From: an uncultured bacterium
GTDB taxonomy: Bacteria; Patescibacteriota; Minisyncoccia; Phycocordibacterales; UBA918
Assembly (NCBI GenBank): GCA_937867625.1
Contig: CALMKR010000111.1
Coordinates: 1 to 37,281, forward strand
DNA length: 37,281 nt
Reading direction: 5' to 3'
Below are positions 1,857-37,281 of the stretch, one piece after another. Position 1 is the stretch's first letter. Each line of letters begins with the position of its first letter. The notes under the pieces are model-generated. The model had not been told where the DNA came from, ran no database searches, and was given only the letters and a program-made list of their open reading frames with translations. The position numbers were made by a program, and so were the translations under genes.

Positions 1857-2156
1857 ATGAACATCGAACCAAGCTACACGCAGTGCAGCGACGTGGAACT
1901 GACAGGTCCCACGCCTCAAGCTTCATGTCATACCACCCGTATAGACAGTGAAGGAACATGGTATATACACACTGCATATCTTAAGGCTACGTCTATCAAT
2001 AGGATAGGTTATGGTCCTTACATAATTAATAAGCATGGAGTACATGAACACGTAACCCAGATATGTGAGACATCAGACCTATGGTGGCAGTTCACAAACA
2101 AGACAATGAATAAGCAAAGGAAAAGACACAACTGGAGTTACTATGAATGGCTTTAA
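1857..2156 (+). CDS. Hypothetical protein, first gene of the coupled Ubl operon (start uncertain; the ORF is open from 1716)
   Basis: ATG at 1857 follows gaaagga. The end overlaps the next ORF start by 14 nt. No recognisable domain. The upstream part of the ORF lies in A/C-rich, low-complexity-looking sequence. Confidence 0.4.
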   Translation: MNIEPSYTQCSDVELTGPTPQASCHTTRIDSEGTWYIHTAYLKATSINRIGYGPYIINKHGVHEHVTQICETSDLWWQFTNKTMNKQRKRHNWSYYEWL

Positions 2157-2523
2157 TCAAACAGTAAGAACAAAGCTTACCCATAAGGGTGAGAAGATAC
2201 AGATCACGACGCCATACGAGCGAGACTACGTACCATACCAACCCCTGGTGTCACCGGAGGATAACCATAGACACGCAGCATCGACGCTCATAAACAGGCA
2301 TCTATCACAGGACATGTACACCCTGGCGTCTGCATGGATAGACATAGAACACATGCTCGAAGCAGTGCACGTAGTGGTCTTCATACCACTGGTGTCACAG
2401 CCCGAGGGCTACGCTACACCACAGGCCCAAGGTTCAACGATCGGACCCCACCCCGACCCAACTATAGAACAGCAACAAACTCTCGCCACAGAGGCGGGAC
2501 TAAACACAAAGGAGACAACATGA
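2143..2523 (+). CDS. Hypothetical protein (126 aa) coupled to the Ubl gene
   Basis: ATG is preceded by ctggagttact (GGAG). Its TGA stop overlaps the ATG of the Ubl gene (ATGA at 2520-2523). The C-terminal third is P/Q/T-rich. Confidence 0.5.
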   Translation: MNGFNQTVRTKLTHKGEKIQITTPYERDYVPYQPLVSPEDNHRHAASTLINRHLSQDMYTLASAWIDIEHMLEAVHVVVFIPLVSQPEGYATPQAQGSTIGPHPDPTIEQQQTLATEAGLNTKETT

Positions 2524-2735
2524 AGGTATTTGCACAGGTTATTGGAGGCGATGCGGTCCAGTACACATTACAAGAGGGGGCTACAATAGCGGACCTTAAG
2601 AAACAGGAGCCTAAGTTTGCTAGCTACCAAGCTTCAATCAATGGCGACTCGGCAGATGACAACGATGAGCTATCAGACTATGCGGTCGTTACATTTTCTG
2701 AGAAAATAAAAGGTGCCGCACCACGTCATAATTAA
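2520..2735 (+). CDS. ThiS/MoaD/ubiquitin-like beta-grasp protein (71 aa) with a C-terminal ...KIKG-AAPRHN tail
   Basis: AAGGAG lies 6 nt upstream. MKVFAQVIGG...YTLQEGATIADLKK...ASINGDSADDNDELSDYAVVTFSEKIKG follows the ThiS/MoaD layout: a short beta start, a helix, an (I/V)NG segment, an acidic loop, a final strand, then Gly. It sits in an operon with E2-like, JAB and E1-like genes. Confidence 0.7.
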   Translation: MKVFAQVIGGDAVQYTLQEGATIADLKKQEPKFASYQASINGDSADDNDELSDYAVVTFSEKIKGAAPRHN

Positions 2736-2803
2736 TTGTTGACACCATTGCAGTGGGGCGCTTGCGGTTGCTTGCGCCTTATGCTTTACGAAAGGATAGA
2801 ACA

Positions 2804-3982
2804 ATGACTGATATGACAACAAGAGTAGAGTTGAATAGAATATATGGGACTCCACCACTGCCAGTTATGCCGTATGAGTATGTACCCATAGTAGTGGGAC
2901 ATGTAGACCATGGCAGTACAGTAGTGCTACCGAAGGAGCCGGTCAGTGCTAACACATACGTGAAGGCACAGCAGACGGCTGCGCTCCTAGGGGTACGACT
3001 AACACCTGAGCGACGCGAGCAGCTCAAGGGAATAGCGACGACGGCAGAGGCGAATAGGTTACTCATGGAGTGGAAGGCTGAGCCTATTACACCACTGGTG
3101 TTGAGCGAACAGGACAAGATGAACCTGTCTAAGATAGGATCACCGACCTCGAGCCATGAGTACAAACAATTGCTCAAGGATATTGAGATGAGGCACGTCA
3201 ACATAAACAAAAACCACACTGCCATCGAGAACTACATAAAAGAAATACAAACTATTGAGACAAGGAAGCAGATACTAGAGAACTTGCCTCGATACGATAT
3301 GGTAGCAGAGGTACAAAAGATACTATCCACTGGATTGTACAAGTTGAACAGCATCAATGAATCGCACATGATCTTTGAGTTAACCAACTTGGTATGTGAA
3401 CACGTAGACAAAGAGCTAGGTATTGATCTAAGAGTACCTCTCGGGGATTTCATAGTGGTAGTGTACTACGATGGTATGCGCGTAGCTGTTGAGCCATGTA
3501 GGCACAACACTAAGGTTAACAATTACGTTCACCCACATGTCAACACATCATACGAAGTATGCTGGGGTAATGCACGAACCATGTACACCAAGACAAGAAC
3601 AACGTTCGATCTCTCTGGTTTGATGACAACACTGTACACGTTACTCAAGACGTACAACCCCGAGTCACCATACGCGAAGCTAAGAGAATTCGATATGAAG
3701 AAGTATCCTGATAAGTACAAGGATGCGATCAAGTACATACCATGCGGTGAGGTAGGTATAGATACGTCAGACATGGATGATAACTATAAGGAAGAACTTG
3801 AAGATGTGGATGGTAACACATGGTTTATCTACGATGGATACCATAAGAAATGTTCCATCACTAACATCACGATAGGTGATGACGTACCTTACATCAAGGT
3901 AGGAGATGAGTATCAAAGGATCAATGCAAACAGGTACTCATGGACACATAGGGATGACATAACAATAGGAGATGACGAATGA
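2804..3982 (+). CDS. UBC/E2-like protein with long N- and C-terminal extensions (392 aa from ATG 2804; the ORF is open from GTG 2753)
   Basis: aaagga RBS lies 7 nt before ATG 2804. The core reads NYVHPHVNTSYEVCWGN (HPH 3530-3538, Cys 3560-3562), then MTTLYTLLKTYNPESPY. This mirrors the eukaryotic E2 HPN...C...LLxxPNPxxP signature. A beta-rich segment precedes the HPH. Confidence 0.7.
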   Translation: MTDMTTRVELNRIYGTPPLPVMPYEYVPIVVGHVDHGSTVVLPKEPVSANTYVKAQQTAALLGVRLTPERREQLKGIATTAEANRLLMEWKAEPITPLVLSEQDKMNLSKIGSPTSSHEYKQLLKDIEMRHVNINKNHTAIENYIKEIQTIETRKQILENLPRYDMVAEVQKILSTGLYKLNSINESHMIFELTNLVCEHVDKELGIDLRVPLGDFIVVVYYDGMRVAVEPCRHNTKVNNYVHPHVNTSYEVCWGNARTMYTKTRTTFDLSGLMTTLYTLLKTYNPESPYAKLREFDMKKYPDKYKDAIKYIPCGEVGIDTSDMDDNYKEELEDVDGNTWFIYDGYHKKCSITNITIGDDVPYIKVGDEYQRINANRYSWTHRDDITIGDDE

Positions 3983-4257
3983 AGGTAGTATTAAGCGAGC
4001 TAGTGCATACCAAGTGTATGTACTGGGTAAACAAATGCGATAAGGAAGTAAGTGGGTTTGGTATCACGAGCATCATAGATATGGATGGTATGAAACAAGT
4101 GTACGTCCACGATGCGTGGTTACTAGAGCAAGAGGTAGGTGCAGCACACACTGACATCGACGCGAAGGCATTGGGTAAACTAATGCAGCAGTCCCTCGTG
4201 CATCCCAAGTATGGTGGTAACAACATAGGAACGTACAAGCTCAACTGGTGGTGGCAT
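3979..4257 (+). CDS. JAB/JAMM (MPN+) metallopeptidase, exon 1
   Basis: ATGA overlap with the E2-like stop. Contains the upstream acidic residue (CDKEVSGFG, Glu at 4045-4047). Ends ...KLNWWWH, immediately followed by an in-frame TAA that I interpret as intron sequence. Confidence 0.8.
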
Positions 4258-5038
4258 TAACTCTTGACATGACATACGAACCACGCTTATGATATTAATA
4301 TGAATGAATACTATTACTATTTAGGATTAATAGCAGCAGATGGATACTTAACTAGGCACGGAGTAGGGTTAGATCTTTGTGAAAAGGATATAATATTTGC
4401 TTGTGCTAAACACTTCAAGTGCCATGAGCCTAAGCAACATGGTAATCTTTGGAGAGTTTTAATTTCTGATAAAGAATTAAGACAAACCATTGTTAACAAA
4501 AGGATAAGAACACCGTATAAGAAAGATATGGTGTGGCCGAGCATACCAAAAAAGTACACTAATCATTTCATTAGAGGATACTTTGATGGAGATGGCAGTG
4601 CTACACTGGAGGACAACGGACGAGGCACGATTAGAACACGAGCCAATATTCGTGGACCTAAGTTGTTTCTAGAAGGGCTACATAAACACATTGGTATCGG
4701 TGGAATAAATCACTCGCATCCAAGATGTAGCACGATAACAATAGGTACTCCATTACTAAAGAAGTTTATTCATATCATATATAAAAATAGTACAATACAT
4801 ATTAAGTATAAGCATGATCGTTTGATGAGTGCCACGAGTCTGGTAACAGGCTCTAGTAAAACCTTCTCTGATTGAGGTGGAAGCCCTAAGGGGTGACACT
4901 GCGCAAGCCCTTGGCAGCGTAAGAGACTAAGTGAGAAGGCCCCACTTATGTGGGTGATGCGATAGTCCGATCTAATATGAAAGTATTAGAGGTACGTAGA
5001 AATACTGTACCCCTCTAGTAATAGAGAGTAACATATTG
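4258..5038 (+). mobile_element. Group I-like self-splicing intron (781 nt) carrying a LAGLIDADG homing endonuclease
   Basis: Joining 4257 to 5039 is in frame (781 = 3n+1 matches the frame shift). It restores H-S-H-VNMNVFW-S-ST-D, the JAMM motif HxHx7Sx2D. The last exon-1 base is T (U) and the last intron base is G (5038), as in group I introns. An internal free-standing ORF has its own start. The 163 nt after the ORF contains several stems, e.g. cccac-ttat-gtggg and agtatt...aatact. Confidence 0.75.
4300..4875 (+). CDS. LAGLIDADG homing endonuclease (double-motif, 191 aa), intron-encoded
   Basis: Two LAGLIDADG motifs: YLGLIAADGYL near the N-terminus and FIRGYFDGDGSA mid-protein. Markedly AT-rich compared with the flanks. 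Confidence 0.9.
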   Translation: MNEYYYYLGLIAADGYLTRHGVGLDLCEKDIIFACAKHFKCHEPKQHGNLWRVLISDKELRQTIVNKRIRTPYKKDMVWPSIPKKYTNHFIRGYFDGDGSATLEDNGRGTIRTRANIRGPKLFLEGLHKHIGIGGINHSHPRCSTITIGTPLLKKFIHIIYKNSTIHIKYKHDRLMSATSLVTGSSKTFSD

Positions 5039-5584
5039 TCACATGTAAACATGAACGTATTCTGGAGTAGCACTGACACTGAGACGATCAAGTCTATAGG
5101 TAAGAATGGCATGTGCGCAGCTACAGTCTTCAACAAGAAGGATGAGATGCGTTCAGCTATATGCTACAAGACAACACACCAACTATGGGGTGACACCACA
5201 CAACTGGTAGATGATGTGCCTACGGTATACGAATACATACCAGACGCACGCATACCAGAGTGGGATGCTGAGTTCGTGGCTTGTGTTAAGGAACGGAAGT
5301 ACGAACCAATAGGTAAGCTACTTGGTAGTAGCGAAGCACACCAGCCGTGGCTTGGTAACTACAAGGATAAGAAGACTAAGTTATCCAAAGAAGAGTATGA
5401 CTGGGGTATCATCGGCTTAGGTGTAGATGTTGAATGTGAATACCTTAAGGTTCCTAGGAAAAGGTATGTTAAGGATATCGTAGAGAACAACACAAGTACC
5501 ATCATGGCATATGACATGAAGCTTCAGGCTGGCATAGATAGTGGCGAGCTGGTGTACCATAACAATATACTAGGAGGTAGATAA
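5039..5584 (+). CDS. JAB/JAMM metallopeptidase, exon 2
   Basis: Begins SHVNMNVFWSSTD, the rest of the JAMM motif (His 5042, Ser 5066, Asp 5075). No plausible RBS or ATG of its own; the track start at 5036 is a TTG. The stop overlaps the E1-like start (TAATG at 5582-5586). Confidence 0.8.
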   Translation, partial: SHVNMNVFWSSTDTETIKSIGKNGMCAATVFNKKDEMRSAICYKTTHQLWGDTTQLVDDVPTVYEYIPDARIPEWDAEFVACVKERKYEPIGKLLGSSEAHQPWLGNYKDKKTKLSKEEYDWGIIGLGVDVECEYLKVPRKRYVKDIVENNTSTIMAYDMKLQAGIDSGELVYHNNILGGR

Positions 5585-6252
5585 TGGAGGCTATATACAA
5601 AGAACACTTAGTAAGACAGTCGGACCTGATACCAGTAGATAAGATAGAAAAGTTGTCAGTGCTAGTGATAGGGTGCGGCGCTATCGGTAGCTTTGCTACG
5701 CTTGCGCTTGCGAAGATGGGGGTCGAGCGGTTCACGGTGTACGACCACGACGCAGTGGACATAGTCAACATGAGCAACCAGTTCTATAGGTTCAGTGACA
5801 TAGGTACGAACAAGGCTATGGCGTTACGCCAGTTGGTGCATGACTTCACGAGGGTTGACATCACAGCACAACCGACGAAGTTCCTACCTGGTATGGTTCA
5901 CACTGCTGATATAGTTATCATGGCAGTGGATAGCATGGAGGTTAGGGCATCCTTATTCCCACATATAAGAGCGAAGTACTTGATAGATACTAGGATGGGT
6001 GCTGAGAAGTACACACAGTACGTAGTAGACATGCGTACTAGGGCTAGCAAGGAAACGTATGAGAAGACACTATACACAGATAGTGAGGCGGTGGCTGAGC
6101 GATGCACTGCTAAGTCTACCATATATACAGCACTGACAGCGGGCAGCATGGTATGTAAAGCGGTCAAGAATATACTTGCCAATGAAGCGCATCCTAAGAC
6201 TATACTTATGGATCTAAACAAATCAACCAACAACGTAATGATGTTTCAGTAG
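5584..6252 (+). CDS. ThiF/MoeB/E1-like adenylyltransferase (222 aa)
   Basis: Rossmann GxGxxG (LVIGCGAIGSFATLALAKMG), then YDHDAVDIVNMSNQFY and AVDSMEVR, matching the ThiF/MoeB nucleotide-binding and adenylation motifs. Cys174 (AERCTAKSTIYTALTAGS) sits where MoeB/ThiF carry their crossover-loop Cys. No C-terminal CxxC pairs or rhodanese domain. Confidence 0.85.
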   Translation: MEAIYKEHLVRQSDLIPVDKIEKLSVLVIGCGAIGSFATLALAKMGVERFTVYDHDAVDIVNMSNQFYRFSDIGTNKAMALRQLVHDFTRVDITAQPTKFLPGMVHTADIVIMAVDSMEVRASLFPHIRAKYLIDTRMGAEKYTQYVVDMRTRASKETYEKTLYTDSEAVAERCTAKSTIYTALTAGSMVCKAVKNILANEAHPKTILMDLNKSTNNVMMFQ

Positions 6253-9732: not shown

Positions 9733-11174
9733 TGAGGCCTTTATGGAAGCACCAAGAACACGCACTTAGCATTGGTATGTGTGTTAGAGATCTTGCACTA
9801 TTTATGGAAATGGGTGTGGGTAAATCAAGAACGATGATTGAGATTCTCAGACGCAAGTACGCAGAAGTAAACAGGGTACGACGCACGTTGATATTCAGTC
9901 CTATCATAGTATGTGAGAACTGGAAGCGAGAGTTCGCTATGTACTCTAAGGTTAATCCGCGAGACATCGTCGTACTTACTGGACCTGGTAAGAAAAGAAT
10001 CCTAACACTTCTAAAAGAATTAGGACAAGATCTTAATGCCAACAAAATTATAATCACTAACTACGAAGCAGTGGAGAACGATGACATCTTTGCAATACTA
10101 ACCCAGTGGAATATAGAGATCATAGTATGCGATGAATCCCAACGACTCAAGAACCCCGACTCAGTACGCGCTAAGAAAGTGGTAACCCTTGCAGATAAAA
10201 CACAGCACAACTACATCCTAACAGGAACACCGATACTTAACTCAAGCTCTGACATCTTCATGCAGTTCAGGATATTAGACAGAGGTCTAACGTTCGGTAA
10301 GAACTTCTATACATTTAGACATGAGTACTTTGAAGACGAGAACGCACGACGCAAAGGCACACAAGGGTACTTCCCCAAGTGGGTTCCTAAAGCGCACACG
10401 TTTGCAGTGCTCCAAGATCTGATTAGTAAGTCAGCACTACGAGTACTTAAGTCTGAGTGTTTAGATCTACCACCACTGGTACGGCAGGTTGTGCAAGCAG
10501 AGATGAGTGCTGAGCAGAAGAGGATGTACAAGGAAATGATGAACGAGTATATCACCTGGCTCACTACAAAGAAGGAAGAACCACGCGCAGTAGTCGCCCA
10601 ACTTGCAGTCACTAAAGCACTGCGGTTACAGCAGATCGTTACTGGTTTTGCCAAGGATGAGAACGGTAGTGTGCACAGACTGGACAGTGTGCCGCGACTC
10701 AAGGTGTTGGAGGAACTACTAGTTGACCTGACTCCACACTCCAAGGTAATCGTATGGTCCATGTTTAAAGAGAACTACTTAATGATTGCAGAGTTGTGCA
10801 ACAAGTTAGGTATCAAGTATCGTGAGATCCATGGTGACATTAGCCACAAGGATAGAGAGCAGAACATGAAGGACTTTAGATCTGAACCTGACATTAAGGT
10901 TATGATAGCAAATCAAGCAGCAGGTGGGACAGGTATCAACCTAGTGGAAGCAAGCTACGCTATCTACTATAGCAAAGGGTTCAAGCTAGAAGATGACTTA
11001 CAATCGGAAGCACGAAACTACAGGGGTGGGTCAGAGATACACGACAAGGTTACAAGAATAGACATCGTAGCTAAGGGTACGATTGACGAATTGATTACAG
11101 AAGCATTAGCAAATAAACAATCCGTCGCAGATAATATTCTGGGATGGAACTTAAAGGAGGTAGGAAGTGAGTGA
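9732..11174 (+). CDS. SNF2/Rad54-family (SF2) helicase/translocase (480 aa)
   Basis: Motifs: MGVGKS (motif I), VCDESQRLKN (DExx box), LTGTPILNS (motif III), QAAGGTGINL (motif V) and QSEARNYRGG (motif VI). Confidence 0.9.
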   Translation: MRPLWKHQEHALSIGMCVRDLALFMEMGVGKSRTMIEILRRKYAEVNRVRRTLIFSPIIVCENWKREFAMYSKVNPRDIVVLTGPGKKRILTLLKELGQDLNANKIIITNYEAVENDDIFAILTQWNIEIIVCDESQRLKNPDSVRAKKVVTLADKTQHNYILTGTPILNSSSDIFMQFRILDRGLTFGKNFYTFRHEYFEDENARRKGTQGYFPKWVPKAHTFAVLQDLISKSALRVLKSECLDLPPLVRQVVQAEMSAEQKRMYKEMMNEYITWLTTKKEEPRAVVAQLAVTKALRLQQIVTGFAKDENGSVHRLDSVPRLKVLEELLVDLTPHSKVIVWSMFKENYLMIAELCNKLGIKYREIHGDISHKDREQNMKDFRSEPDIKVMIANQAAGGTGINLVEASYAIYYSKGFKLEDDLQSEARNYRGGSEIHDKVTRIDIVAKGTIDELITEALANKQSVADNILGWNLKEVGSE

Positions 11175-11643
11175 CGAAGAACAACTGGAGTTATGGGATG
11201 AACCCAAGACACCAGTGAGTGAGGACAAGCTTGAGCTATTGGATCAAACCATAGCAGAGCTACGCACGGCGCGTGAAGCACGCGACTTGGCAGAGTCTAA
11301 GTATAACATTGAAGCAGCATCGTGCAAGGTTATAGAAGACAAACTTATGGGACTGCTTAAAGCAGTGGGTAGGGATAGCTTCAAAACCCCTGGTATAGGT
11401 ACTGTATCTATCACGCATAGACAGAACTTCACGACGCCTAAGACAGGCGAAGACAAAGTAGCCTTGTTCAACTACATCAAGGGACAGTACGGTGAGGAAG
11501 TGCTACGCTCTATGGTAAGCATACACTCAGCAACTCTTAACTCGTGGGCTAAGAAGGAACTGGAAACAGGAGCATTAGTTATTCCAGGGTTAGGACAACC
11601 AACAGCAACAGAAATAATAGCGTTCAGAAAGGACACAAAATGA
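11167..11643 (+). CDS. Hypothetical replication-module protein (158 aa)
   Basis: Acidic N-terminus followed by a coiled coil. Its position between the helicase and the SSB-like gene resembles Gp157-type proteins of other phages, but I cannot verify this. Confidence 0.5.
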   Translation: MSDEEQLELWDEPKTPVSEDKLELLDQTIAELRTAREARDLAESKYNIEAASCKVIEDKLMGLLKAVGRDSFKTPGIGTVSITHRQNFTTPKTGEDKVALFNYIKGQYGEEVLRSMVSIHSATLNSWAKKELETGALVIPGLGQPTATEIIAFRKDTK

Positions 11644-11864
11644 GCAGAGAGAATTTCTTTATAAAGGTTCACACAATAGATACCGATAAGGTTAAAGGTT
11701 CGGAGGTATTACTCCATGCTGATCATATCGTAGCCATTGTTAACCTAGACAACAAGGGATCAACAGTATTAACAATCACTGGTGTAGTGTACACGGTTCG
11801 CGAAGCAGCTGCCAACATCATGGAGAAGCTAACGAAGTTTAACGTAGGAAGGGAATTAACATGA
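11640..11864 (+). CDS. Hypothetical protein (74 aa)
   Basis: ATGA overlaps on both sides. No domain recognised. Confidence 0.5.
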   Translation: MSRENFFIKVHTIDTDKVKGSEVLLHADHIVAIVNLDNKGSTVLTITGVVYTVREAAANIMEKLTKFNVGRELT

Positions 11865-12622
11865 GTAAAGATCTAGCAACTAAACAAGCAGGAGCCGTAA
11901 GCACAGACCTAGCAGAGTGGGGCAATGATGTGCACGTAGGTAAAGACCTACTGATATCTAAGGTGCTAACCATGCAGGCTATGAGTGAACTAGTAGTAGA
12001 GTCCGACGCCAAGATGGGCGAGTTCCGCGACTCAATCACTAAAGAACTCCTTGGTGATATCACCAAACCAGTAGCGTTCGTACCATTCCACTGCATTAAG
12101 AAGTGGGACATCTCTGAGTCAGAGAATGGAACAGACTTCAAGTGGGTCAAGTCAGTACCAGTAGTAGAAGATCCAACACATCCTGACTACAACGATAACT
12201 GGGAGTGGACAGTACAAGAAGCTAACAAGACTATCAAGCGTGTCAGACGCTTAGACTTCTTCTGCCTTATCGCAAGCCAGATTGGAAATGGTGGATTGCC
12301 AGTGACTATCAGCTTTAGATCTACTAGTTACAAGGCTGGACAGATCTTATTTAATCAGATGTATGTACGTAACAAGATGGTTAAGAAATCCCCAGCTGGT
12401 ATCGTTATGAACCTAGGTGGTATCAAGGATAAGAATGAGAAGGGTACGTTTGTGGTAACACAAGCAGTCCCACTACGCGATGCTACATCTGCGGAACAGA
12501 ATGAAGCATTGACTTGGTACAAACTAATCAAGACATCTACCGTTGTGGTTGATGAATCAGATAATACCAAGGGAACTTCACCTACACCAAACGTAGAAGA
12601 AGCTTCAGCTGGTAGGTTCTAA
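11861..12622 (+). CDS. Hypothetical protein, possibly a T7 gp2.5-like ssDNA-binding protein (253 aa)
   Basis: The size, the position in the replication module, and an acidic C-terminal tail ending in Phe (...VVVDESDN...NVEEASAGRF) are reminiscent of gp2.5-type SSBs. No motif-level proof. Confidence 0.55.
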   Translation: MSKDLATKQAGAVSTDLAEWGNDVHVGKDLLISKVLTMQAMSELVVESDAKMGEFRDSITKELLGDITKPVAFVPFHCIKKWDISESENGTDFKWVKSVPVVEDPTHPDYNDNWEWTVQEANKTIKRVRRLDFFCLIASQIGNGGLPVTISFRSTSYKAGQILFNQMYVRNKMVKKSPAGIVMNLGGIKDKNEKGTFVVTQAVPLRDATSAEQNEALTWYKLIKTSTVVVDESDNTKGTSPTPNVEEASAGRF

Positions 12623-13029
12623 TGAAGCAATGCAGAGCTGACCATTTACATACAGCATTTAAAAGAAATCTTTATTGGGTGGAAAAGGACGGCTCTGTAT
12701 GGTGCGCGGAAAAGAAGTGCGGATTTCATACAAGACCCTCGCATAAAATGAAGACAAAATACAGAACACACAAAGGTGCAGGGTACTATATAATTCAGAT
12801 ATGTGTAAATAATATTAAATTCTATTACCCTGTTCATCAGGTTGTATGGTCGTACTTTCATGGGACTCCAGTGGTTGGGCAAGAAATAAATCATATTGAT
12901 TGTGACAAAACAAACAACCGTATAAGTAATTTAGAAATAACAAGCAGAAAGGGAAATGCAATGCACGCATACATTAACAATCGTATGTTAAAAGAAAGAT
13001 GTAAGGTTACAGGAAGGATATTAAAATGA
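12622..13029 (+). CDS. HNH homing endonuclease (135 aa), free-standing
   Basis: EINHIDCDKTNNRISNLEITSRKGN is a classic HNH_3-type H-N-N/H core. The gene is AT-rich compared with its neighbours. It has a TAATG overlap upstream and an ATGA overlap downstream. Confidence 0.85.
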   Translation: MKQCRADHLHTAFKRNLYWVEKDGSVWCAEKKCGFHTRPSHKMKTKYRTHKGAGYYIIQICVNNIKFYYPVHQVVWSYFHGTPVVGQEINHIDCDKTNNRISNLEITSRKGNAMHAYINNRMLKERCKVTGRILK

Positions 13030-13781
13030 TTCTACTTTTAGATATCGAATCGACGGGCCTAAAGCCTGGGGTTGATCGTGTCGTTGAGTTAGGCATGATG
13101 GTAACATCTGAGGACTACACAGTTGTGCATAACAAGTATAGCAAATTGATTTGGGACGACACATATCCAGAGATGCTACCTGAAGTGACGGCAGTGAATG
13201 GCATCACTACTGATATGCTAAAGGGTAACAGCATACCACCATGGGTGGCTTGCGCTGACATCGAAGCGTTGATGTATTCATACGGAGTACGGTACATTAT
13301 TGCTTACAACGCACAGTTTGATAAAGAGTTCATTAGCAGAGAGATGCAGGTAGTTGGTAAGACTAAGTACCAGGACTACAAATGGTTATGTGCTATGGCA
13401 GATGTGAAGGCTAACATGAAGTGTTCTTCATGGAAGCTTATGCACGTAGCTCTTGATCATGGTGTGACTGTCAATCCAAAGGAACTACATAGAGCTATTA
13501 ACGATGTGGAGTTAATGAGGCAGATGCTTGTAGCAGCCGACGCTAGACCAACGGAGATGTACGCATATCAGCAATCACCTAACGTATACGTGCAAGCCCA
13601 TGTAAAGAAACCATGGGATGATGATGGTCTTAGTACACAGCAGGCTAAGAAACTAGGCTTCTCTTGGGAGAAGGCTCGTGGTGATAGCAGGATATTTCAA
13701 AAGACTTGGGTAAAAAGAATAAAAGAATGTGACCTATTAGAACAACAAGCCACGTTCCCATTTATAACAACAATCCTATAG
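13026..13781 (+). CDS. DnaQ/epsilon-like DEDDh 3'-5' exonuclease (251 aa)
   Basis: ExoI LLLDIESTGL, ExoII IAYNAQFDKEF, ExoIII HRAINDVE (Hx4D). Confidence 0.85.
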   Translation: MILLLDIESTGLKPGVDRVVELGMMVTSEDYTVVHNKYSKLIWDDTYPEMLPEVTAVNGITTDMLKGNSIPPWVACADIEALMYSYGVRYIIAYNAQFDKEFISREMQVVGKTKYQDYKWLCAMADVKANMKCSSWKLMHVALDHGVTVNPKELHRAINDVELMRQMLVAADARPTEMYAYQQSPNVYVQAHVKKPWDDDGLSTQQAKKLGFSWEKARGDSRIFQKTWVKRIKECDLLEQQATFPFITTIL

Positions 13782-13977: not shown

Positions 13978-15663
13978 ATGTTTATTTCCATCGACACAGA
14001 AAGCACGGGCCTAGAGGAGAGTGACAGACCGTTCTGTGCAACTATCTCTGGGCAAGGGTTCGATGTGTACACTGAGAATCCAGAGGAGGCACGAAGCTTA
14101 GTTCATAGTGCCAATGGTTTGTATCTTCAGAATACTAAGTTCGACGCACGTATGTTATCCCACTGGGGTATCGACGTGTTCAAGAGACCAACGTATGACT
14201 GCGCGTTCATGTCTAGGATACTACGCAATGATCACTTGCAGTATAGCCTATCAGCTCAAGCTAAACGGCAGGGTATGGAGAAGTCCACTGCCGTTGATGC
14301 AGCTCTCAAAGCGGGTAACCACTACGAGCAGCGAAGGGATTACTTCGGTAGACCATATAAGGTTCCACGTTACGACCAAGTGGATAGGAATATTCTTAGG
14401 CAGTACGCGATCCTTGATTCAAAGATAACGTACAATCTTGGCACATACTATCATACAGTTGCAGATGCAAACGATCGTGTGGTAATGGATATGGAATCTC
14501 GGCTTACTCCAGTGTGCTACGCTATGGAGCGAAGAGGTGTGATGCTTAATAGAGAGTACACGCTTCGTGGTATGTACCATGAGAAGGCACTGCTAGATGG
14601 GTACAAGAAACAGTGGAAGGATAGAACAGGTGCTGACTTTGTTAACTCAGCTAAGTCTGTGAGTAAACACATTGCAGCATCCTTACCTCTAACAGATGAT
14701 AGTAACCCATCCCTAACTGACGATGTTATAGAAGAACTTCTACCAACTGTGTCTGAAGGTGACAAGGAACGGCTGCTCCTAGTGCGTAACATTAGAACAT
14801 ACGATAAGCGTATCAGTACATACTATGAGTCATACCTAAATAAGGCAGGGCTAGTGGATGACGTTGTACATCCCACTATGTGGCAAGCAGGTACACGTAC
14901 AGGGCGCTTTAGCTATAGTGATCCGAATCTTCAGAATATACCAAAGGAAGAGGATAGTGTTGAACCATTCGTTATCAGAGGGTGCTTCAGACCTAGACTT
15001 GGTTACTCTTTCATATCATTTGACTATAGTCAGATGGAGTACCGTATGCTCGCTGATTACGCAGGTGAGATGGACGTTATCAATGCAGTGGTAGCAGGGA
15101 AGGACTTCCACCAAGTCACAGCAGACATGTTTGGTGTAACGAGGAAGATGGCAAAGACTATCAACTTCGCTATTCTATACGGAGCAGGTGATGCAAAGCT
15201 TGCGTTGATGCTAGGTATCAGCGTACAGGAAGCACGACGCTTGAAGGATAAGTACTTTATGGCACTGCCAAAGGTTGAACGTTTGGTGAATGACATCATA
15301 TCAGTTGGCAGGGGTCGTGGCTTCGTGAACAATTGGATAGGTAGAAAGCTATACGCTGATAAAGAACACTGCTACGCTCTTCCTAATCACTTGATTCAAG
15401 GTGGAGGGGCTGACGTTGTGAAGCTTGCAATGATTCAGATAGCGGATTATCTTAAAGGAAAAGATGTTCACATGGTACTACAGATTCACGATCAGTTAAT
15501 ATTTGAGTATCCCAATGGCATGGATATGACCTACGCCAGGGGTATTAAAGAAATAATGGAGAACGAATACATTAGTAAGTCAGGTAAGATGAAGCTTACT
15601 GTGGACTGCTCTGTATCAGGAAATTCAATAGCAGAACGAGACATGAGAAAGGTTGCTCTATGA
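13978..15663 (+). CDS. Family A DNA polymerase with N-terminal 3'-5' exonuclease domain (561 aa)
   Basis: Exo motifs are ISIDTESTGL, NTKFDARML and YAILDSKITY. Polymerase motif A is FDYSQMEYRMLA, motif B is RKMAKTINFAILYGAG, and motif C is LQIHDQLIFE. Confidence 0.95.
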   Translation: MFISIDTESTGLEESDRPFCATISGQGFDVYTENPEEARSLVHSANGLYLQNTKFDARMLSHWGIDVFKRPTYDCAFMSRILRNDHLQYSLSAQAKRQGMEKSTAVDAALKAGNHYEQRRDYFGRPYKVPRYDQVDRNILRQYAILDSKITYNLGTYYHTVADANDRVVMDMESRLTPVCYAMERRGVMLNREYTLRGMYHEKALLDGYKKQWKDRTGADFVNSAKSVSKHIAASLPLTDDSNPSLTDDVIEELLPTVSEGDKERLLLVRNIRTYDKRISTYYESYLNKAGLVDDVVHPTMWQAGTRTGRFSYSDPNLQNIPKEEDSVEPFVIRGCFRPRLGYSFISFDYSQMEYRMLADYAGEMDVINAVVAGKDFHQVTADMFGVTRKMAKTINFAILYGAGDAKLALMLGISVQEARRLKDKYFMALPKVERLVNDIISVGRGRGFVNNWIGRKLYADKEHCYALPNHLIQGGGADVVKLAMIQIADYLKGKDVHMVLQIHDQLIFEYPNGMDMTYARGIKEIMENEYISKSGKMKLTVDCSVSGNSIAERDMRKVAL

Positions 15664-18765: not shown

Positions 18766-20466
18766 TTATTGAAAATGTTCTTCAATAAAAATTTGTCCAG
18801 ACCCACCAGCGCCGCCTGCGTTGCCAGTTGTCCCAGCTGCGCCGCCGCCGCCTCCAGAGCCAACAGAATAACCGTACGTTGCTGAAGGGTTATAAATAAT
18901 TGCATCAATATATCCTCCAGCACCACCGCCGCCGCCTGCATAACCATCAGTAGCACTATCCATTGACCCACCACCGCCGCCTGCTCCAGTGTTTGAGCCA
19001 GCAGCCCCTCCAGTAGTGCTGCCAGCCCTTCCACCGCCGCCAAAAGGTGATGAGGCTCCAGCAGAACCTCTCGTGTAATTTATTGTTTGACCAAAAAAAC
19101 CGAAAGTTCCGTCGCCGCCGCCAAGTGCAATTCCTACTGGACCAGTACCTAGCGATACAGAGCCTCCAGCACCACCTGTAAATCCGTTACCTCCAGTGCC
19201 ACCATTGGCTGCGAGCAATGATGTTCCGAAAGTTGTATTACCTCCAGTGCCACCAGTATTACCGGAGTTTGCTGTACCAGCACCGCCTCCACCGCCACCT
19301 CCGCCTACCATTTTTACTTTTAAATACTTGACTCCGTTTTGAAGCGTGTGTGTTCCAGATGATGATAAGTATTTCGTAATTACAGGAGCCTTCATCTGAG
19401 AAATAATATTCCAATTAGTTCCGTCGCAAACTAGAGTAACTTCGTCGAATTGATAATTTAGTTTTATGTTAGCAAATCCGTTTATGGTTTCAGAAGCGTT
19501 ACCATCAATAGTTAATGAGTTTGTATCACTTGATGTTTTTACAACTCTTAAAACTTTTCCAGAATTTCCACTTGCTGCATAAAGTGTTAATGTCCATGCA
19601 GAGCCAGTATATACCAAAATGACATCATCACTAGTTGTTGCCGTGTAAGTAGTCGTCTTTGATGTAACAGCTAAAGCGCTTCCCGTAACAGACGCCCAGA
19701 TAACACCATTTGTTTGAGTAGAATCAGCCTTTAAAAACGTGCCATCACTTCCAACACCTTGCCTTGCAACTGTTGCTGAAGCGGTGGCAACGTATAAGTC
19801 ACCTTTAGTTGTCAGAGTTGATCTTGCTTGTTTGGCATTAAGTTGAACTTGTAAATCACTTGTTGCTGTACCTAAATAACCAAGTTGAGTGGCAGTTACA
19901 GAACTAGCAGCAAGCTCACTTGATGCGCCTGTTACTAAAGCGCGACTCGCAGTTAAAGGAGTTGTTATAGTACCAGTAAATGTTGGTGACGCTAAAGGAG
20001 CTTTTAATCCAAGTGCAGTATTCAAATCTGTTTGGTCACTCAAGGTTCCTGTAATAGTTCCCCAGACACCGCCGCCACCAGATGAGCTAGACAGAAGGTC
20101 CCAAGTACCAGCAGCAGATCCGGCTGCGCGAAGGTGAAGTTCTGCTTGAGCGCCCCCTGCGATAGTTCCTAACAGTCCACCCCCACTAGCGTTAACTGTA
20201 ACTAATCCAGTTGATTTGTTTATAATTAGAAATTTACGACCTAGCACCAGTGTGGTAGCGTCGGGCATTACCACTGTGTGCGTGGTAACACCAGTGATGA
20301 TTTGTTTTGTCTCGCTGGCTACCGTAAGGGTTAGCGTACCAGCGGCACTTGCAGTGGTAGTAAAACCTTCAATTAGGGCAGGGCCTTTTATGTAGGTCCC
20401 AGCTCCTAATACGTTAAGCGATAATAGAAGGGCTATTAATAAATATTTAAATTGCGTCTTTTGCAT
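18766..20466 (-). CDS. Tail fibre/receptor-binding-like protein with C-terminal glycine-rich domain (566 aa from the internal ATG)
   Basis: Last large gene of the virion module. S/T/A/G-rich beta-type body. The C-terminal ~190 aa is made of GGxGG/GxGG runs (VGGGGGGGGAGTANSGNTGGTGGN...GGGGGAGGY...GGAGGSGQIFIEE), as in the glycine-rich domains of podovirus fibres. The N-terminus MQKTQFKYLLIALLLSLNVLGAG looks signal-like. Confidence 0.7.
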   Translation of the reverse strand: MQKTQFKYLLIALLLSLNVLGAGTYIKGPALIEGFTTTASAAGTLTLTVASETKQIITGVTTHTVVMPDATTLVLGRKFLIINKSTGLVTVNASGGGLLGTIAGGAQAELHLRAAGSAAGTWDLLSSSSGGGGVWGTITGTLSDQTDLNTALGLKAPLASPTFTGTITTPLTASRALVTGASSELAASSVTATQLGYLGTATSDLQVQLNAKQARSTLTTKGDLYVATASATVARQGVGSDGTFLKADSTQTNGVIWASVTGSALAVTSKTTTYTATTSDDVILVYTGSAWTLTLYAASGNSGKVLRVVKTSSDTNSLTIDGNASETINGFANIKLNYQFDEVTLVCDGTNWNIISQMKAPVITKYLSSSGTHTLQNGVKYLKVKMVGGGGGGGGAGTANSGNTGGTGGNTTFGTSLLAANGGTGGNGFTGGAGGSVSLGTGPVGIALGGGDGTFGFFGQTINYTRGSAGASSPFGGGGRAGSTTGGAAGSNTGAGGGGGSMDSATDGYAGGGGGAGGYIDAIIYNPSATYGYSVGSGGGGGAAGTTGNAGGAGGSGQIFIEEHFQ

Positions 20467-21295
20467 CGTATGCCACCTTGTAGTTAGCACTGTCTGTCAG
20501 TGTGTTAAATGTAATTGTAAATCCTGAAGTTGATCTTGCACTCACGTAACCTTGTAAAAAGATTGGACTAGAGTCGATCTCATTTATGATTGTAAACCCT
20601 GGAACATATAAAGCATTTGCAGTGACGCCTGAGAACACTACTGTGTGCGAACTAACTCCACTTGATATCGCTTCTTCGCCTACACGAAGGAATCCTGCTC
20701 CATTAGTACCGTTGGTTCCATTAGTACCATTTGTTCCGTTGGTTCCATTAGTACCATTTGTTCCGTTGGTTCCATTCGCACCTGCTGGTCCTGTGGGTCC
20801 CGTTGGTCCTACAAGAGTTGAAGGATCTAGATACTCAAGACCATCTAGGGTAGCGTTAATAGTTAGAACGCTTCCAGCAACTGGTGGTGACACAAGTGTT
20901 GTGTCTATGGCTGCGGAATCACCAATGGTTAACTTGATACTTCTACCTATGTCACGCGCTAGCTCTTGGATTAGTAGAGCCAGCTTATCCATGGCTTCTT
21001 CATGGTCAGCAGGTAGGAATGGGCCAGTGGTTAGGTACGTAGTAGTCTGTACCTTCGGTGCTTCTCTGTAGATAATAAGAACTTGTGCAGATGTGGGGGC
21101 TGTCCCCATGACCACGTCAGTACCTACAACTGTGAAGTCCACGCCTTGTGCTAAGGTAGTCTCTACTCCAGTGGCTATGACCTTACGTATGGCTTTAACG
21201 TGCGTAGCACTTTTGAAATCAAAGGTAATAGCGAAGTCTGTTTGAGAGCCATCACCTACATAGGAAACATCTGTGAGTGTATTACTTACTGACAT
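20447..21295 (-). CDS. Tail fibre protein with collagen-like G-X-Y segment (282 aa)
   Basis: The N-terminus VSYVGDGSQTDFAITFDF is typical of podovirus fibre or adaptor N-domains. There are 13 uninterrupted G-X-Y triplets: GPTGPTGPAGAN(GTN)x8GAG. Confidence 0.75.
   Translation of the reverse strand: MSVSNTLTDVSYVGDGSQTDFAITFDFKSATHVKAIRKVIATGVETTLAQGVDFTVVGTDVVMGTAPTSAQVLIIYREAPKVQTTTYLTTGPFLPADHEEAMDKLALLIQELARDIGRSIKLTIGDSAAIDTTLVSPPVAGSVLTINATLDGLEYLDPSTLVGPTGPTGPAGANGTNGTNGTNGTNGTNGTNGTNGTNGAGFLRVGEEAISSGVSSHTVVFSGVTANALYVPGFTIINEIDSSPIFLQGYVSARSTSGFTITFNTLTDSANYKVAYDAKDAI
20702..20773. repeat. Tandem 9 bp repeat x8 (27 bp higher-order unit) encoding (GTN)x8
   Basis: + strand units attagtacc / gttggttcc / atttgttcc are repeated head to tail, in frame with the fibre gene. 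Confidence 0.9.
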
Positions 21296-37198: not shown

Positions 37199-37267
37199 CG
37201 CGGTGCAGCAATCTTGTGTGGGTTTTGTAGTGGGTTGCGTCGTGGTCCTGAGTACGCAAGGGGGGTG
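37199..37267. repeat. Right copy of the imperfect ~69 bp direct repeat
   Basis: See 19-87: 66 of 69 positions are identical. It lies 49 nt outside the TerS start codon. Confidence 0.85.
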
Positions 37268-37281
37268 GGGTCCGAATCGGG

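Follow-up and report, generated by a model that had tools for sequence, protein, structure and literature searches.

Tagging chemistry of the ubiquitin type is known from bacterial anti-phage immunity. The ISG15-like anti-phage system Bil (BilABCD) distributes four roles over separate genes: a ubiquitin-like protein (Ubl), an E2 with a catalytic Cys, a JAB/JAMM peptidase and an E1. The E1 of Bil is built of several domains, IAD-AAD-CYS (PMC11601596), and some BilA homologues have short C-terminal overhangs past the conserved Gly (10.1101/2023.09.04.556158). In archaeal sampylation (SAMP/UbaA/JAMM), a JAMM peptidase serves both to process the modifier and to take it off again (PMC4443979). Caldiarchaeum/Asgard-type and eukaryotic ubiquitin operons comprise Ub, E1, E2, a RING E3 and Rpn11. 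The prokaryotic operons classified by Iyer, Burroughs and Aravind as types 6a-6e have a common theme on mobile elements: an E1-like protein, an E2-like protein and a JAB, with or without a Ubl (PMC1779556).

Described here is a four-gene Ubl-conjugation kit carried by a small marine-type phage. It lies in a window of 37,281 nt, the whole stretch of DNA analysed, and all features given below are on the + strand. The order of the genes is Ubl (2520-2735), E2-like protein (2804-3982), JAB (3979-4257 plus 5039-5584) and E1 (5584-6252). A first-pass annotation had proposed such a set adjoining replication genes in a phage; its open reading frames (ORFs), coordinates and motifs were confirmed, as was the phage setting, and its family assignments were supported. 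The cassette may be read as a virus-specific variant of the prokaryotic Ubl-conjugation systems, with a predicted enzymology.

Organization and distribution of the cassette

Most of the genes abut tightly. Two ORFs upstream, of 99 aa (1857-2156) and 126 aa (2143-2523), overlap by 14 nt (2143-2156), and the stop codon of the latter overlaps the Ubl start in an ATGA at 2520-2523, both overlaps being as originally annotated. A further ATGA joins the E2-like and JAB genes (3979-3982), and JAB and E1 meet in a TAATG (5582-5586). The proposed translational coupling of all four cassette genes is not supported. Coupling is absent between Ubl and the E2-like gene, which lie 68 nt apart (gap 2736-2803), and the E2-like gene is preceded by its own ribosome-binding site, AAGGA. 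Related loci contain no homologue of the 99-aa ORF. For the 126-aa ORF just two were found, both weak (loci L008 and L001, E ~2e-5) and both immediately upstream of Ubl; this ORF matched nothing in Pfam or NCBIfam, and phrog_3199 at E=0.003. It is outside the conserved core of the cassette and may be a lineage-specific accessory gene.

The cassette family was confirmed at 154 IMG/VR loci. Among the 80 of these that were fetched, about 45 have the order Ubl-E2-JAB-E1, and in ~9 others E1 and JAB have changed places; the Ubl-E2-JAB-E1 order also occurs in Logan/ENA/NCBI contigs and in MAG contigs. The arrangement is far more than chance: dozens of viral contigs, independent of one another, have the same four families in the same order. 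In a set of 185,579 species genomes the cassette was present only on 9 small MAG contigs, and the family is near-exclusively viral. When 50,697 deposited phage genomes were searched by tblastn with the JAB and E2-like sequences, there was no match. Recurrence in well over 100 uncultured phage contigs, and almost never in cellular genomes, therefore suggests that viruses use this tagging chemistry as well. Related loci yielded no further consistently linked gene; the sole recurrent neighbour is a D5-type primase-helicase (15 loci, one lineage).

The Ubl and the E1-like enzyme

The Ubl gene encodes a 71-aa precursor of the ThiS/SAMP2-like beta-grasp type. Its earlier assignment to this fold was borne out by a family profile of 38 homologues, which gave a full-length match to P. 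furiosus SAMP2 in the PDB (5lda_B, E=9.1e-7), followed by 1rws (2.5e-6), H. volcanii SAMP2 (4.5e-3) and MoaD (0.048). Pfam ThiS is matched by 14 of the 38 members and SAMP2 by 6; the window's own Ubl, scanned singly against Pfam, fell below threshold. The C-terminus reads ...EKIKGA-APRHN. In the family alignment a conserved C-terminal [VIT]KG[GA] is followed by 0-37 extra residues; tails of 1-37 aa follow KG[GA] in 28 of 41 distinct homologues, and a processing peptidase is therefore required. The mature Ubl probably ends at ...IKGA (2520-2717), with APRHN (2718-2732) as the predicted removable tail. On this reading the conjugating end would lie here, and not at the C-terminal Gly assumed at first.

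The E1-like adenylating enzyme (5584-6252) is minimal, a single ThiF/MoeB-type domain of 222 aa (Pfam ThiF, E=5.4e-25), in agreement with the initial assignment. Its conserved residues, those of the ATP site among them, are R11, GxGxxG (30-35), D54, N62, K77, D116, R121, D135 and R137, and the candidate catalytic Cys174 (6103-6105) is present in 99% of 75 homologues. The enzyme has neither CxxC pairs nor a rhodanese domain. One related locus encodes an E1-SWIB domain fusion. The best PDB matches are ATG7 and MccB (~4e-7), a similarity of the shared nucleotide-binding region only.

The E2-like protein

The E2-like protein has 392 aa. A helical region towards the N-terminus (aa ~49-159) precedes a core of UBC type (aa 160-310, nt 3281-3733), and the C-terminal domain is rich in beta structure (aa ~309-380). 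Its start is placed at ATG 2804, because homologues and a 99%-identical database protein favour this codon over the GTG at 2753 that was chosen originally; the residue then numbered Cys270 is Cys253. The E2 hallmark that had been recognized is in place: HPH (3530-3538), Cys253 (3560-3562) 8 residues after it and LLKTYNPESP downstream. The family numbers 707 cluster representatives at E<=1e-3. Across 150 sequences there is no variation at G214, H243, C253 or G255, and the H243/C253 spacing is that of UBC enzymes. The N- and C-terminal regions are highly variable across phages, with protein lengths of 288-654 aa.

Placement in the UBC/E2 fold, a prediction of the first-pass annotation, was supported by profile and model. 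UBC E2 enzymes are the top PDB matches of the family profile (1q34, E=3.2e-4; 1.2e-3 in another search), a link that spans the active-site half only, at E ~1e-3 to 3e-4. In the alignment HPH falls on HPN, Cys on the catalytic Cys and YNPeSPY on PNPnSP. Pfam UQ_con is matched by 6 of 67 members (best 7.8e-7); the window's own protein, scanned singly against Pfam, was below threshold. The AF2 model has a pLDDT of 87.5 at full length and of 96.3 in the core (pTM 0.90), where the order of helices and strands is that of the UBC topology. A Foldseek search of solved structures gave no significant match, the best being the E2 Ube2W (E=0.049, prob 0.91, TM 0.44-0.47); in BFVD the model matched a Yasminevirus E2 (E=3.5e-3, prob 0.99). 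Against solved structures, the support that the model lends to an E2 fold is consistent but weak.

The JAMM peptidase and its group I intron

The JAB gene is interrupted inside an invariant motif, WWWH-SHV. Exon 1 (3979-4257, aa 1-93) encodes Glu23 and the first His of HxH; exon 2 (5039-5584, aa 94-274) encodes SHVNMNVFWSSTD and the C-terminal domain. The spliced product of 274 aa has E23 and WWWH joined to SHVNMNVFWSSTD, which gives HxHx7Sx2D across the junction. It has 225 homologues, many of them uninterrupted and 250-300 aa long, with E23, W91-W92-H93, S94, H95, S103 and D106 invariant. The family profile matched the Caldiarchaeum Rpn11-like protein 6fjv (E=7.1e-7) and next eukaryotic RPN11, and PF14464 Prok-JAB is found in several homologues. 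The two segments had been recognized as a JAMM metallopeptidase from this motif, and the family data agree.

The annotation of the gap between them can now be refined: it is a group I intron of 781 nt (4258-5038) with a LAGLIDADG homing endonuclease. The end of exon 1, GTGGCAT, is complementary to the proposed P1 guide GTGCCAC (4829-4835), its last T pairing as U.G with the internal guide sequence. Proposed elements are P2 (4836-4853), P3 (4862-4868 with 4933-4939), P7 (4925-4929 with 4963-4967), P8 (4941-4954), P9 (4971-4990) and P9.1 (4991-5011), and the terminal G is at 5038. Locus L017 has the same intron at the same site, 84% identical over 512 nt; a consensus fold of the two copies recovers P2, P3, P8, P9 and P9.1, the last of these with two compensatory pairs. 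In intron-less JAB homologues the joined exon sequence is unbroken (e.g. L014, 28/30 nt). The endonuclease ORF (4300-4875, 191 aa; Pfam LAGLIDADG_3, 4.4e-5; phrog_4645 endonuclease, 3.1e-19) is 81% identical in protein sequence to that of the L017 copy. A promoter-like, sigma70-like site, TTGACA-18-TATGAT, lies at 4264-4293. The phage group I introns of T4 td and nrdB likewise pair a 5' splice-site U with a guide G, end in G, possess a P3-P9 core and carry a free-standing endonuclease ORF within a loop; they too are inserted in an enzyme gene's most conserved codons, and related phages differ in their carriage. Unlike these, the present intron has its ORF in the P1 loop and matched no Rfam model. 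We know of no earlier case of a JAMM peptidase gene as host of such an intron.

Proposed pathway and alternative explanations

The cassette is, on balance, likely to be a self-contained phage-encoded Ubl-conjugation pathway, expressed with early/replication genes. We infer each chemical step, which way transfer runs, what is targeted and how the phage benefits, in a scheme of the following kind. The group I intron would self-splice to yield a whole JAB gene, a step that is partly supported. The JAMM peptidase would cut the Ubl precursor after ...IKGA, releasing APRHN. The minimal, probably homodimeric ThiF-type E1 would adenylate the new C-terminus and form a thioester on Cys174, from which the Ubl would move to Cys253 of the E2-like protein, with HPH in place of HPN. 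An isopeptide bond would then be made on a host or phage protein. The E2-like protein, which is extended at both its N- and C-terminus and has no E3 partner of its own, probably picks the substrate itself; neither an E3 nor a candidate substrate was found. The JAMM peptidase may also reverse the modification.

Alternatively, the Ubl could be a sulfur carrier on the model of ThiS/ThiF, MoaD/MoeB, TtuB/TtuC, CysO/Mec+ or QbsE/QbsD. The E1 would adenylate it, a thiocarboxylate would form and sulfur would pass to a nucleoside, DNA or a small molecule, while the JAB would trim the tail only and the 'E2' would have a different role. In the known QbsD/QbsE and Mec+/CysO pathways a JAB does trim residues after Gly-Gly, and the ThiS/SAMP2-like Ubl and the location among DNA-metabolism genes also fit. 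The best NCBIfam models of the E1 are indeed ThiF sulfur-carrier adenylyltransferases, but at scores far under the equivalog cut-offs (78.9 bits vs 159). The E1 has no rhodanese, and no rhodanese, cysteine desulfurase, PP-loop ATPase, ThiG or MoaE was found among the scanned ORFs of the window, in line with the first-pass annotation; nor is such a partner consistently linked in related loci. Sulfur transfer would moreover not explain why a protein whose UBC-type His...Cys site is invariant is always linked, and is improbable.

Conjugation could also serve in conflict, an unlikely but somewhat better candidate. In counter-defence, the JAB would remove Bil-type Ubl marks made by the host, or host Ubl/CBASS conjugation would be blocked by the phage Ubl; in superinfection exclusion, the Ubl would be put on virion proteins of a competing phage, in the manner of Bil. 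That Ubl conjugation can decide phage-host conflicts is known from Bil and type II CBASS (10.1101/2023.09.04.556158; 10.1101/2023.09.26.559546). Expression of the cassette is from the early arm, and the variable ends of the E2-like protein are as expected for a conflict interface. However, the JAB alone would suffice for stripping host marks, and no PADLOC Ubl, E2 or JAB model was matched beyond a marginal JAB (E=0.017). In many phage lineages, moreover, the cassette keeps to one position next to core replication genes, whereas Bil is sparsely distributed in bacteria. An acceptor other than a protein lysine (a lipid, nucleotide, DNA end or cell-wall precursor; cf. ATG8-PE) is very improbable: ATG7 and MccB, the E1's nearest solved relatives by sequence, do serve non-canonical acceptors, and the E1-SWIB fusion points the same way, but the ATG7/MccB similarity is confined to the nucleotide-binding region, the E2 motif is like that of canonical UBC enzymes and unlike ATG3/ATG10, and positive evidence for any such acceptor is nil.

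Comparison with known systems

The cassette was compared with Bil, CBASS, PRTRC and ThiS/ThiF, and membership tests for all four failed. The resemblance to the PRTRC cassette suggested earlier was not upheld: only the E1 gave a match, sub-threshold, to PRTRC_ThiF (51 bits, cut-off 144.75), and the other PRTRC models were unmatched. The theme of types 6a-6e, a set that includes CBASS Cap2/Cap3 (6b) and alongside which PRTRC was considered, is shared. Unlike the phage cassette, however, types 6a-6c have E2-E1(-JAB) fusions, type 6d an E2 without the classical His plus an alpha-helical partner, and type 6e polyUbl proteins (PMC1779556). The phage example given in that work, TAPI and TAPK of lambda/T1, consists of a Ubl and a JAB only, acts in tail assembly and is a different system.

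Bil has the same four roles in separate genes and, in some BilA homologues, short overhangs like that of the phage Ubl. The phage E1 is a single domain of 222 aa, not a multidomain protein; the Collimonas Bil Ubl has two ubiquitin-like domains, the phage Ubl one ThiS/SAMP2-like domain of 66 aa; and the phage E2 has 392 aa, with extra domains. The cassette has no PADLOC matches beyond the marginal JAB, the BilB structure 8tyz_C scores poorly against the E2-like model in Foldseek (E=0.76), and Bil resides in bacterial defence islands whereas this kit is phage-encoded. Sampylation has in common with it a small MoeB/ThiF-type E1 and, in SAMP2, the closest match of the Ubl profile. An E2 is, to our knowledge, not part of sampylation, but in the phage cassette an E2-like protein is linked in every case; the phage E1 reaches 29 bits on the UbaA model (cut-off 450), and the setting is a bacteriophage. 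In comparison with the Caldiarchaeum/Asgard-type and eukaryotic operons, the cassette is without a RING E3, its E1 is minimal rather than multidomain, its Ubl is ThiS/SAMP2-like and not ubiquitin-like (Pfam ubiquitin matches 1 of 38 members), and the third residue of its E2 motif is His, not Asn. With these operons it nevertheless shares the classical E2 active site (H-P-[N/H], Cys 8 residues on, downstream xNPxSP), a JAB nearest to the Caldiarchaeum Rpn11-like protein and RPN11, and a Ubl made as a precursor.

Genome context and gene layout

The phage cassette is real, conserved and almost confined to viral contigs, and is a variant of the prokaryotic ubiquitin-like (Ubl) conjugation theme. 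Its genes lie on the forward strand in the left arm of the window. Two ORFs of 99 aa (1857–2156) and 126 aa (2143–2523) stand in front of the Ubl gene (71 aa, 2520–2735). The E2-like gene (392 aa, 2804–3982, or 409 aa when the start is placed at GTG 2753) is followed by the 5′ part of the JAB peptidase gene (93-aa ORF, 3979–4260), an endonuclease ORF (191 aa, 4300–4875), the 3′ part of JAB (182-aa ORF, 5036–5584) and the E1 gene (222 aa, 5584–6252). The gene overlaps listed in the first-pass annotation are present: 14 nt at 2143–2156, ATGA at 2520 and at 3979, and TAATG at 5582–5586. That annotation also had the Ubl and E2-like genes translationally coupled, which they are not, because 68 nt separate them.

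With about 37.2 kb, the window looks like an entire podovirus genome. Near both ends (19–95 and 37199–37276) lies an imperfect direct repeat (94%) some 78 nt long, and the GC fraction of the ends is 0.54 versus about 0.43. Terminal repeats in GC-rich ends suggest a complete linear phage genome, not the overlap of a circular assembly. The forward-strand arm encodes a D5-type primase-helicase, an SNF2 helicase and a split PolA; the reverse-strand arm encodes terminase, portal and tail proteins, and the portal is 42% identical to portals of the HTVC010P group of Pelagibacter phages. The family A DNA polymerase is divided into separate exonuclease (13026–13781) and polymerase (13978–15663) ORFs with a 196-nt gap between them, and is directly preceded by an HNH endonuclease ORF (12622–13029). 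Two further ORFs of the early arm (11167–11643 and 11861–12622) match Pfam families named for cyanophage Pam3, DUF7307 (gp33-like) and Pam3_Gp34; the same pair occurs in a syntenic contig, L003. On the reverse strand, ORF 20447–21295 adjoins a tail-protein gene and contains nine overlapping copies of a repeat with a 9-nt period (20682–20800), which looks like a collagen-like Gly-X-Y stretch.

The E2-like protein

When the window proteins were scanned against Pfam, NCBIfam, PADLOC and PHROGs, the E1 and the homing endonuclease were the only two that could be placed. Among the cassette proteins scanned singly, only the E1 exceeds a curated model; the Ubl, E2-like and JAB proteins remain below cut-offs, and family profiles were therefore needed. 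A k-mer homologue search with the E2-like protein returned one near-identical copy and nothing more. Exhaustive phmmer searching yielded relatives in 707 cluster representatives at E ≤ 1e-3. In an alignment of 150 sequences (numbering from ATG 2804), G214, H243, C253 and G255 are invariant, and conservation is 90% or more at P244, H245, L281, Y284 and P289. The active-site signature is of the HPN type, H243-P244-H245, with C253 eight residues past H245. The top PDB matches of the family profile are eukaryotic UBC enzymes, namely 1q34 (E = 3.2e-4) and 1z3d (5.1e-4), then RAD6 and UbcH5. In the alignments to 1q34 and 1z3d, HPH falls on HPN, the cysteine on the catalytic cysteine, and YNPeSPY on PNPnSP. 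The window protein alone reaches only 12.6 bits (E = 0.11) against Pfam UQ_con, for which the cut-off is 27. That model is matched by six of 67 family members (best 7.8e-7); the Prok-E2 models are matched by none of the 67.

An AlphaFold2 model was built on the 150-sequence alignment. Its pLDDT is 87.5 for the whole protein and 96.3 for residues 160–310 (pTM 0.90). The order of elements in the predicted core follows the UBC topology: a helix, a four-strand meander, the HPH loop, the cysteine and three helices. Two strands are unusually long (15 residues). Foldseek comparison of the core with the PDB gave Ube2W as best match (probability 0.91, E = 0.049, TM 0.44–0.47), the next UBC-type folds in the list being Cdc34 and an RWD domain; for bacterial BilB, E was 0.76. 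No solved structure matched the core at E ≤ 1e-3, and the full-length model was uninformative. Modelling the core alone raised model confidence, and still the PDB matches were not significant. Against the predicted viral structures of BFVD, the top matches are uncharacterised phage proteins, and an annotated giant-virus E2 (Yasminevirus) matches at E = 3.5e-3 (probability 0.99). Motif, profile and predicted topology together make the assignment of the 2804–3982 product as a putative E2 well supported, with structural comparison stopping short of proof.

The modifier

Related loci supplied 41 distinct Ubl homologues. Their profile aligns with Pyrococcus furiosus SAMP2 (5lda_B) at E = 9.1e-7, positions 1–66 on residues 1–69, so placed that its KG[GA] sits on the terminal GG. 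It also matches Haloferax volcanii SAMP2 and, less strongly, MoaD, and Pfam ThiS is matched by 14 of 38 members. This agreement over the whole domain identifies the Ubl as a predicted beta-grasp modifier of the ThiS/MoaD/SAMP type. The C-terminus consists of [VIT]KG[GA] followed by 0–37 further residues: 13 homologues stop at the motif, and the other 28 carry tails. Because its own motif is followed by the tail APRHN, the window Ubl is predicted to be produced as a precursor, whose mature end is probably KGA. The conserved lysine before G[GA] has a practical consequence. After trypsin digestion a modified lysine should retain a Gly-Gly or Gly-Ala remnant, which would allow existing diGly proteomics to find the targets.

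The JAB peptidase and the E1

Joining 3979–4257 to 5039–5584 gives a JAB protein of 274 aa with 225 homologues. Many of these are uninterrupted proteins of 250–300 aa on contigs of 37–41 kb, and PF14464 is recorded on several. Residues E23, W91, W92, H93, S94, H95, S103 and D106 (numbering of the spliced product) are invariant in 40 sequences, and the spliced protein carries the full JAMM zinc site, E...HxHx7Sx2D. The nearest PDB entry to its profile is a Caldiarchaeum Rpn11-like protein (6fjv, 7.1e-7), followed by eukaryotic RPN11.

The E1 matches Pfam ThiF at 5.4e-25 (88.4 bits, cut-off 28.1), which places it among the E1/ThiF/MoeB adenylating enzymes. Its ATP site is conserved (GxGxxG, D54, K77, D116 and arginine residues), and 99% of 75 homologues share Cys174. 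CxxC zinc motifs and a rhodanese domain are absent from the protein. The best NCBIfam models are ThiF adenylyltransferases, reached at half their cut-off (PRK08644, 78.9 bits versus 159).

An intron in the JAB gene

The JAB exons are separated by 781 nt (4258–5038) that have the sequence features of a group I intron. The last base of exon 1 is T and that of the intron is G. A guide, GTGCCAC (4829–4835), pairs with the exon 1 end GTGGCAT and places a U.G pair at the splice site. Immediately 3′ to it follow a GNRA-capped P2, P3 (CCTTCTC/GAGAAGG), P7 (GACTA/TAGTC), P8, P9 and P9.1, which include the P3-P7-P8-P9 core that, with the U.G in P1 and the terminal G, is expected of group I introns. These pairings were picked by eye and their coordinates verified; P7 is a proposed, unscored pseudoknot. 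No Rfam model matches the intron, whether gathering or E-value thresholds are applied. IMG/VR contig L017 (1–513) has a second copy at the same site, 84% identical, and the consensus fold of the two recovers the nested helices with two compensatory pairs. Two independent ENA assemblies have the same allele with the intron.

Support for the exon junction comes from many homologues in which the joined exon sequence is uninterrupted at the nucleotide level. At the insertion site the intron-less JAB gene reads AACTGGTGGTGGCAT joined directly to TCACATGTAAACATG, and the close relative L007 has an uninterrupted gene. The insertion falls inside the invariant zinc-site motif, and close relatives lack the intron. 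The ORF in the P1 loop (4300–4875) encodes a LAGLIDADG endonuclease. Just upstream of its start codon, inside the intron, lies the best sigma70-like site of the first 7.2 kb (TTGACA-18-TATGAT, 11 of 12 matches, 4264–4293). It may be the promoter of the endonuclease; sigma70-like sites as a whole are no more frequent in the region than chance predicts.

Distribution and distant relatives

Scanned with the JAB profile, IMG/VR yielded 154 confirmed loci. The order Ubl-E2-JAB-E1 is found in about 45 of 80 fetched loci, E1 and JAB are swapped in about nine of the 80, and JAB-E1 is kept in more distant loci. The cassette is also present on Logan, ENA and NCBI contigs, and one of these copies is part of a prophage-like stretch within a 314-kb contig. 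The primase-helicase is the only recurrent neighbour in related loci; no other gene is consistently linked. An 82-kb viral contig encodes an E1 with a fused SWIB/MDM2 domain (PF02201; L006:9199–10254). The same contig has an enlarged JAB (398 aa) and E2-like protein (576 aa), and an Amidoligase_2 gene about 6 kb downstream. Among 185,579 species-representative genomes only nine matching loci were found, all on MAG contigs of 2.5–49 kb, and on re-scanning the E2-like gene adjoins JAB in eight of them.

Searches of 50,697 deposited phage genomes gave no match, either by tblastn with the JAB and E2-like proteins or by megablast with the region, and an IMG/VR scan with peptide patterns of the E2-like protein gave none. 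The close family is absent from cultured phages. The cassette has been overlooked partly because of this lack of JAB and E2-like tblastn matches in deposited phages, and partly because the window Ubl, E2-like and JAB proteins, scanned singly, fall short of every Pfam and NCBIfam cut-off.

Relatives of the E1 at about 28% identity occur in crAss-like, Flavobacterium and Xanthomonas jumbo phages. In Xanthomonas jumbo phage PhiXhv-12 (L088, PV764601.1, 1280–4654), the gene immediately 5′ of a ThiF-type E1 encodes an 892-aa protein with the stretch IHPHM...C.G. Profile comparison (hhalign probability 68%, E = 4.9e-5) makes it a probable distant E2-like protein; no JAB adjoins the pair. In crAss-like phages (L087, uncultured phage cr126_1, MT774391.1, 1316–4702), a JAB peptidase with HSHHx7SGTD, annotated 'metalloprotease', is located inside the replication module and adjoins a ThiF annotated as 'thiamine biosynthesis protein'. 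Upstream of these is a 393-aa protein with a YMHSHIH...C.G stretch; an E2-like identity could not be demonstrated for it (hhalign probability 3.9%). Further upstream, a 308-aa protein has, by eye, a beta-grasp-like N-terminus and an L7/L12-like C-terminus.

Proposed mechanism

Component identities, conserved residues, linkage and intron anatomy are matters of observation. The cassette is best read as an autonomous conjugation cascade, of which we infer the chemistry and the target. (i) The intron would splice out to give an intact JAB gene. (ii) JAB would trim the Ubl tail. (iii) The E1 would adenylate the Ubl and then carry it on Cys174. (iv) The Ubl would move from the E1 to Cys253 of the E2-like protein. 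(v) With its own extra domains and without an E3 partner, the E2-like protein would select the substrate. (vi) JAB could reverse the mark. Candidate roles are replication control, host takeover, counter-defence and exclusion of rival phages, between which sequence does not decide.

Alternatively, the cassette might serve a sulfur-carrier pathway instead of conjugation. This reading is disfavoured, because no sulfur-relay partner is found among the scanned window ORFs or the recurrent neighbours, and because it leaves an obligate UBC-type protein unexplained. Nor does the E1 show the marks of the ThiF/MoeB sulfur-carrier activators: it misses the equivalog cut-offs and has no rhodanese domain, and the same ORFs and neighbours include no ThiG, MoaE or other sulfur-transfer partner.

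Significance

Recent work has shown that bacterial operons of E1, E2, JAB and Ubl genes provide anti-phage immunity by tagging proteins of the phage. The interest of the present cassette is that it puts Ubl-conjugation chemistry on the virus side. A widespread, near-virus-restricted cassette would mean that phages use this chemistry for their own ends, and opens to testing what a phage tags and for what purpose. The broadest form of the proposal is that tailed phages own a near-virus-restricted, complete Ubl-conjugation lineage, in which a SAMP2-like modifier and a minimal E1 are combined with a classical UBC-type E2 site and a peptidase like Rpn11. It would be expressed early beside the replication genes and would covalently modify host or phage proteins. 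The family is large, with over 700 E2-like clusters (50% identity), and its distant relatives may extend to Xanthomonas jumbo and possibly crAss-like phages. We regard this proposal as evenly balanced between right and wrong. If it is true, ubiquitin-type tagging acts on both sides of the phage–bacterium conflict, and phages may have served as a reservoir when ubiquitin enzymes first evolved. Compared with the bacterial Prok-E2 families, the cassette parts look more like the classical components of archaea and eukaryotes, a likeness based on the HPx-x7-C and NPxSP motifs of the E2 and on the Rpn11-like peptidase. This bears on the origin of ubiquitin enzymes.

Comparison with known systems

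A literature search found no description of the phage cassette; prior mention is possible in two papers of Burroughs and Aravind (PMC2701696, PMC5938088) that lay outside the search. PADLOC gives no match to the Ubl and E2-like proteins, a marginal one to JAB, and for the E1 matches to CBASS E1-E2 models only. Type II CBASS was rejected since an E2-E1 fusion is expected there and the two are separate genes here; no CD-NTase is encoded in the window or linked loci. The likeness to PRTRC cassettes proposed in the first-pass annotation was not borne out. Only the E1 matches a PRTRC model (PRTRC_ThiF, TIGR03736), scoring 51 bits where 144.75 are required, and the other proteins have no match to any PRTRC model. 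Membership of Bil was also rejected, on the PADLOC outcome and on the E1, which is multidomain (IAD-AAD-CYS) in Bil and a single domain of 222 aa in the cassette. The cassette is unlike every one of the operon types 6a–6e (PMC1779556). In its predicted way of working, it resembles Bil and the archaeal or eukaryotic ubiquitin systems.
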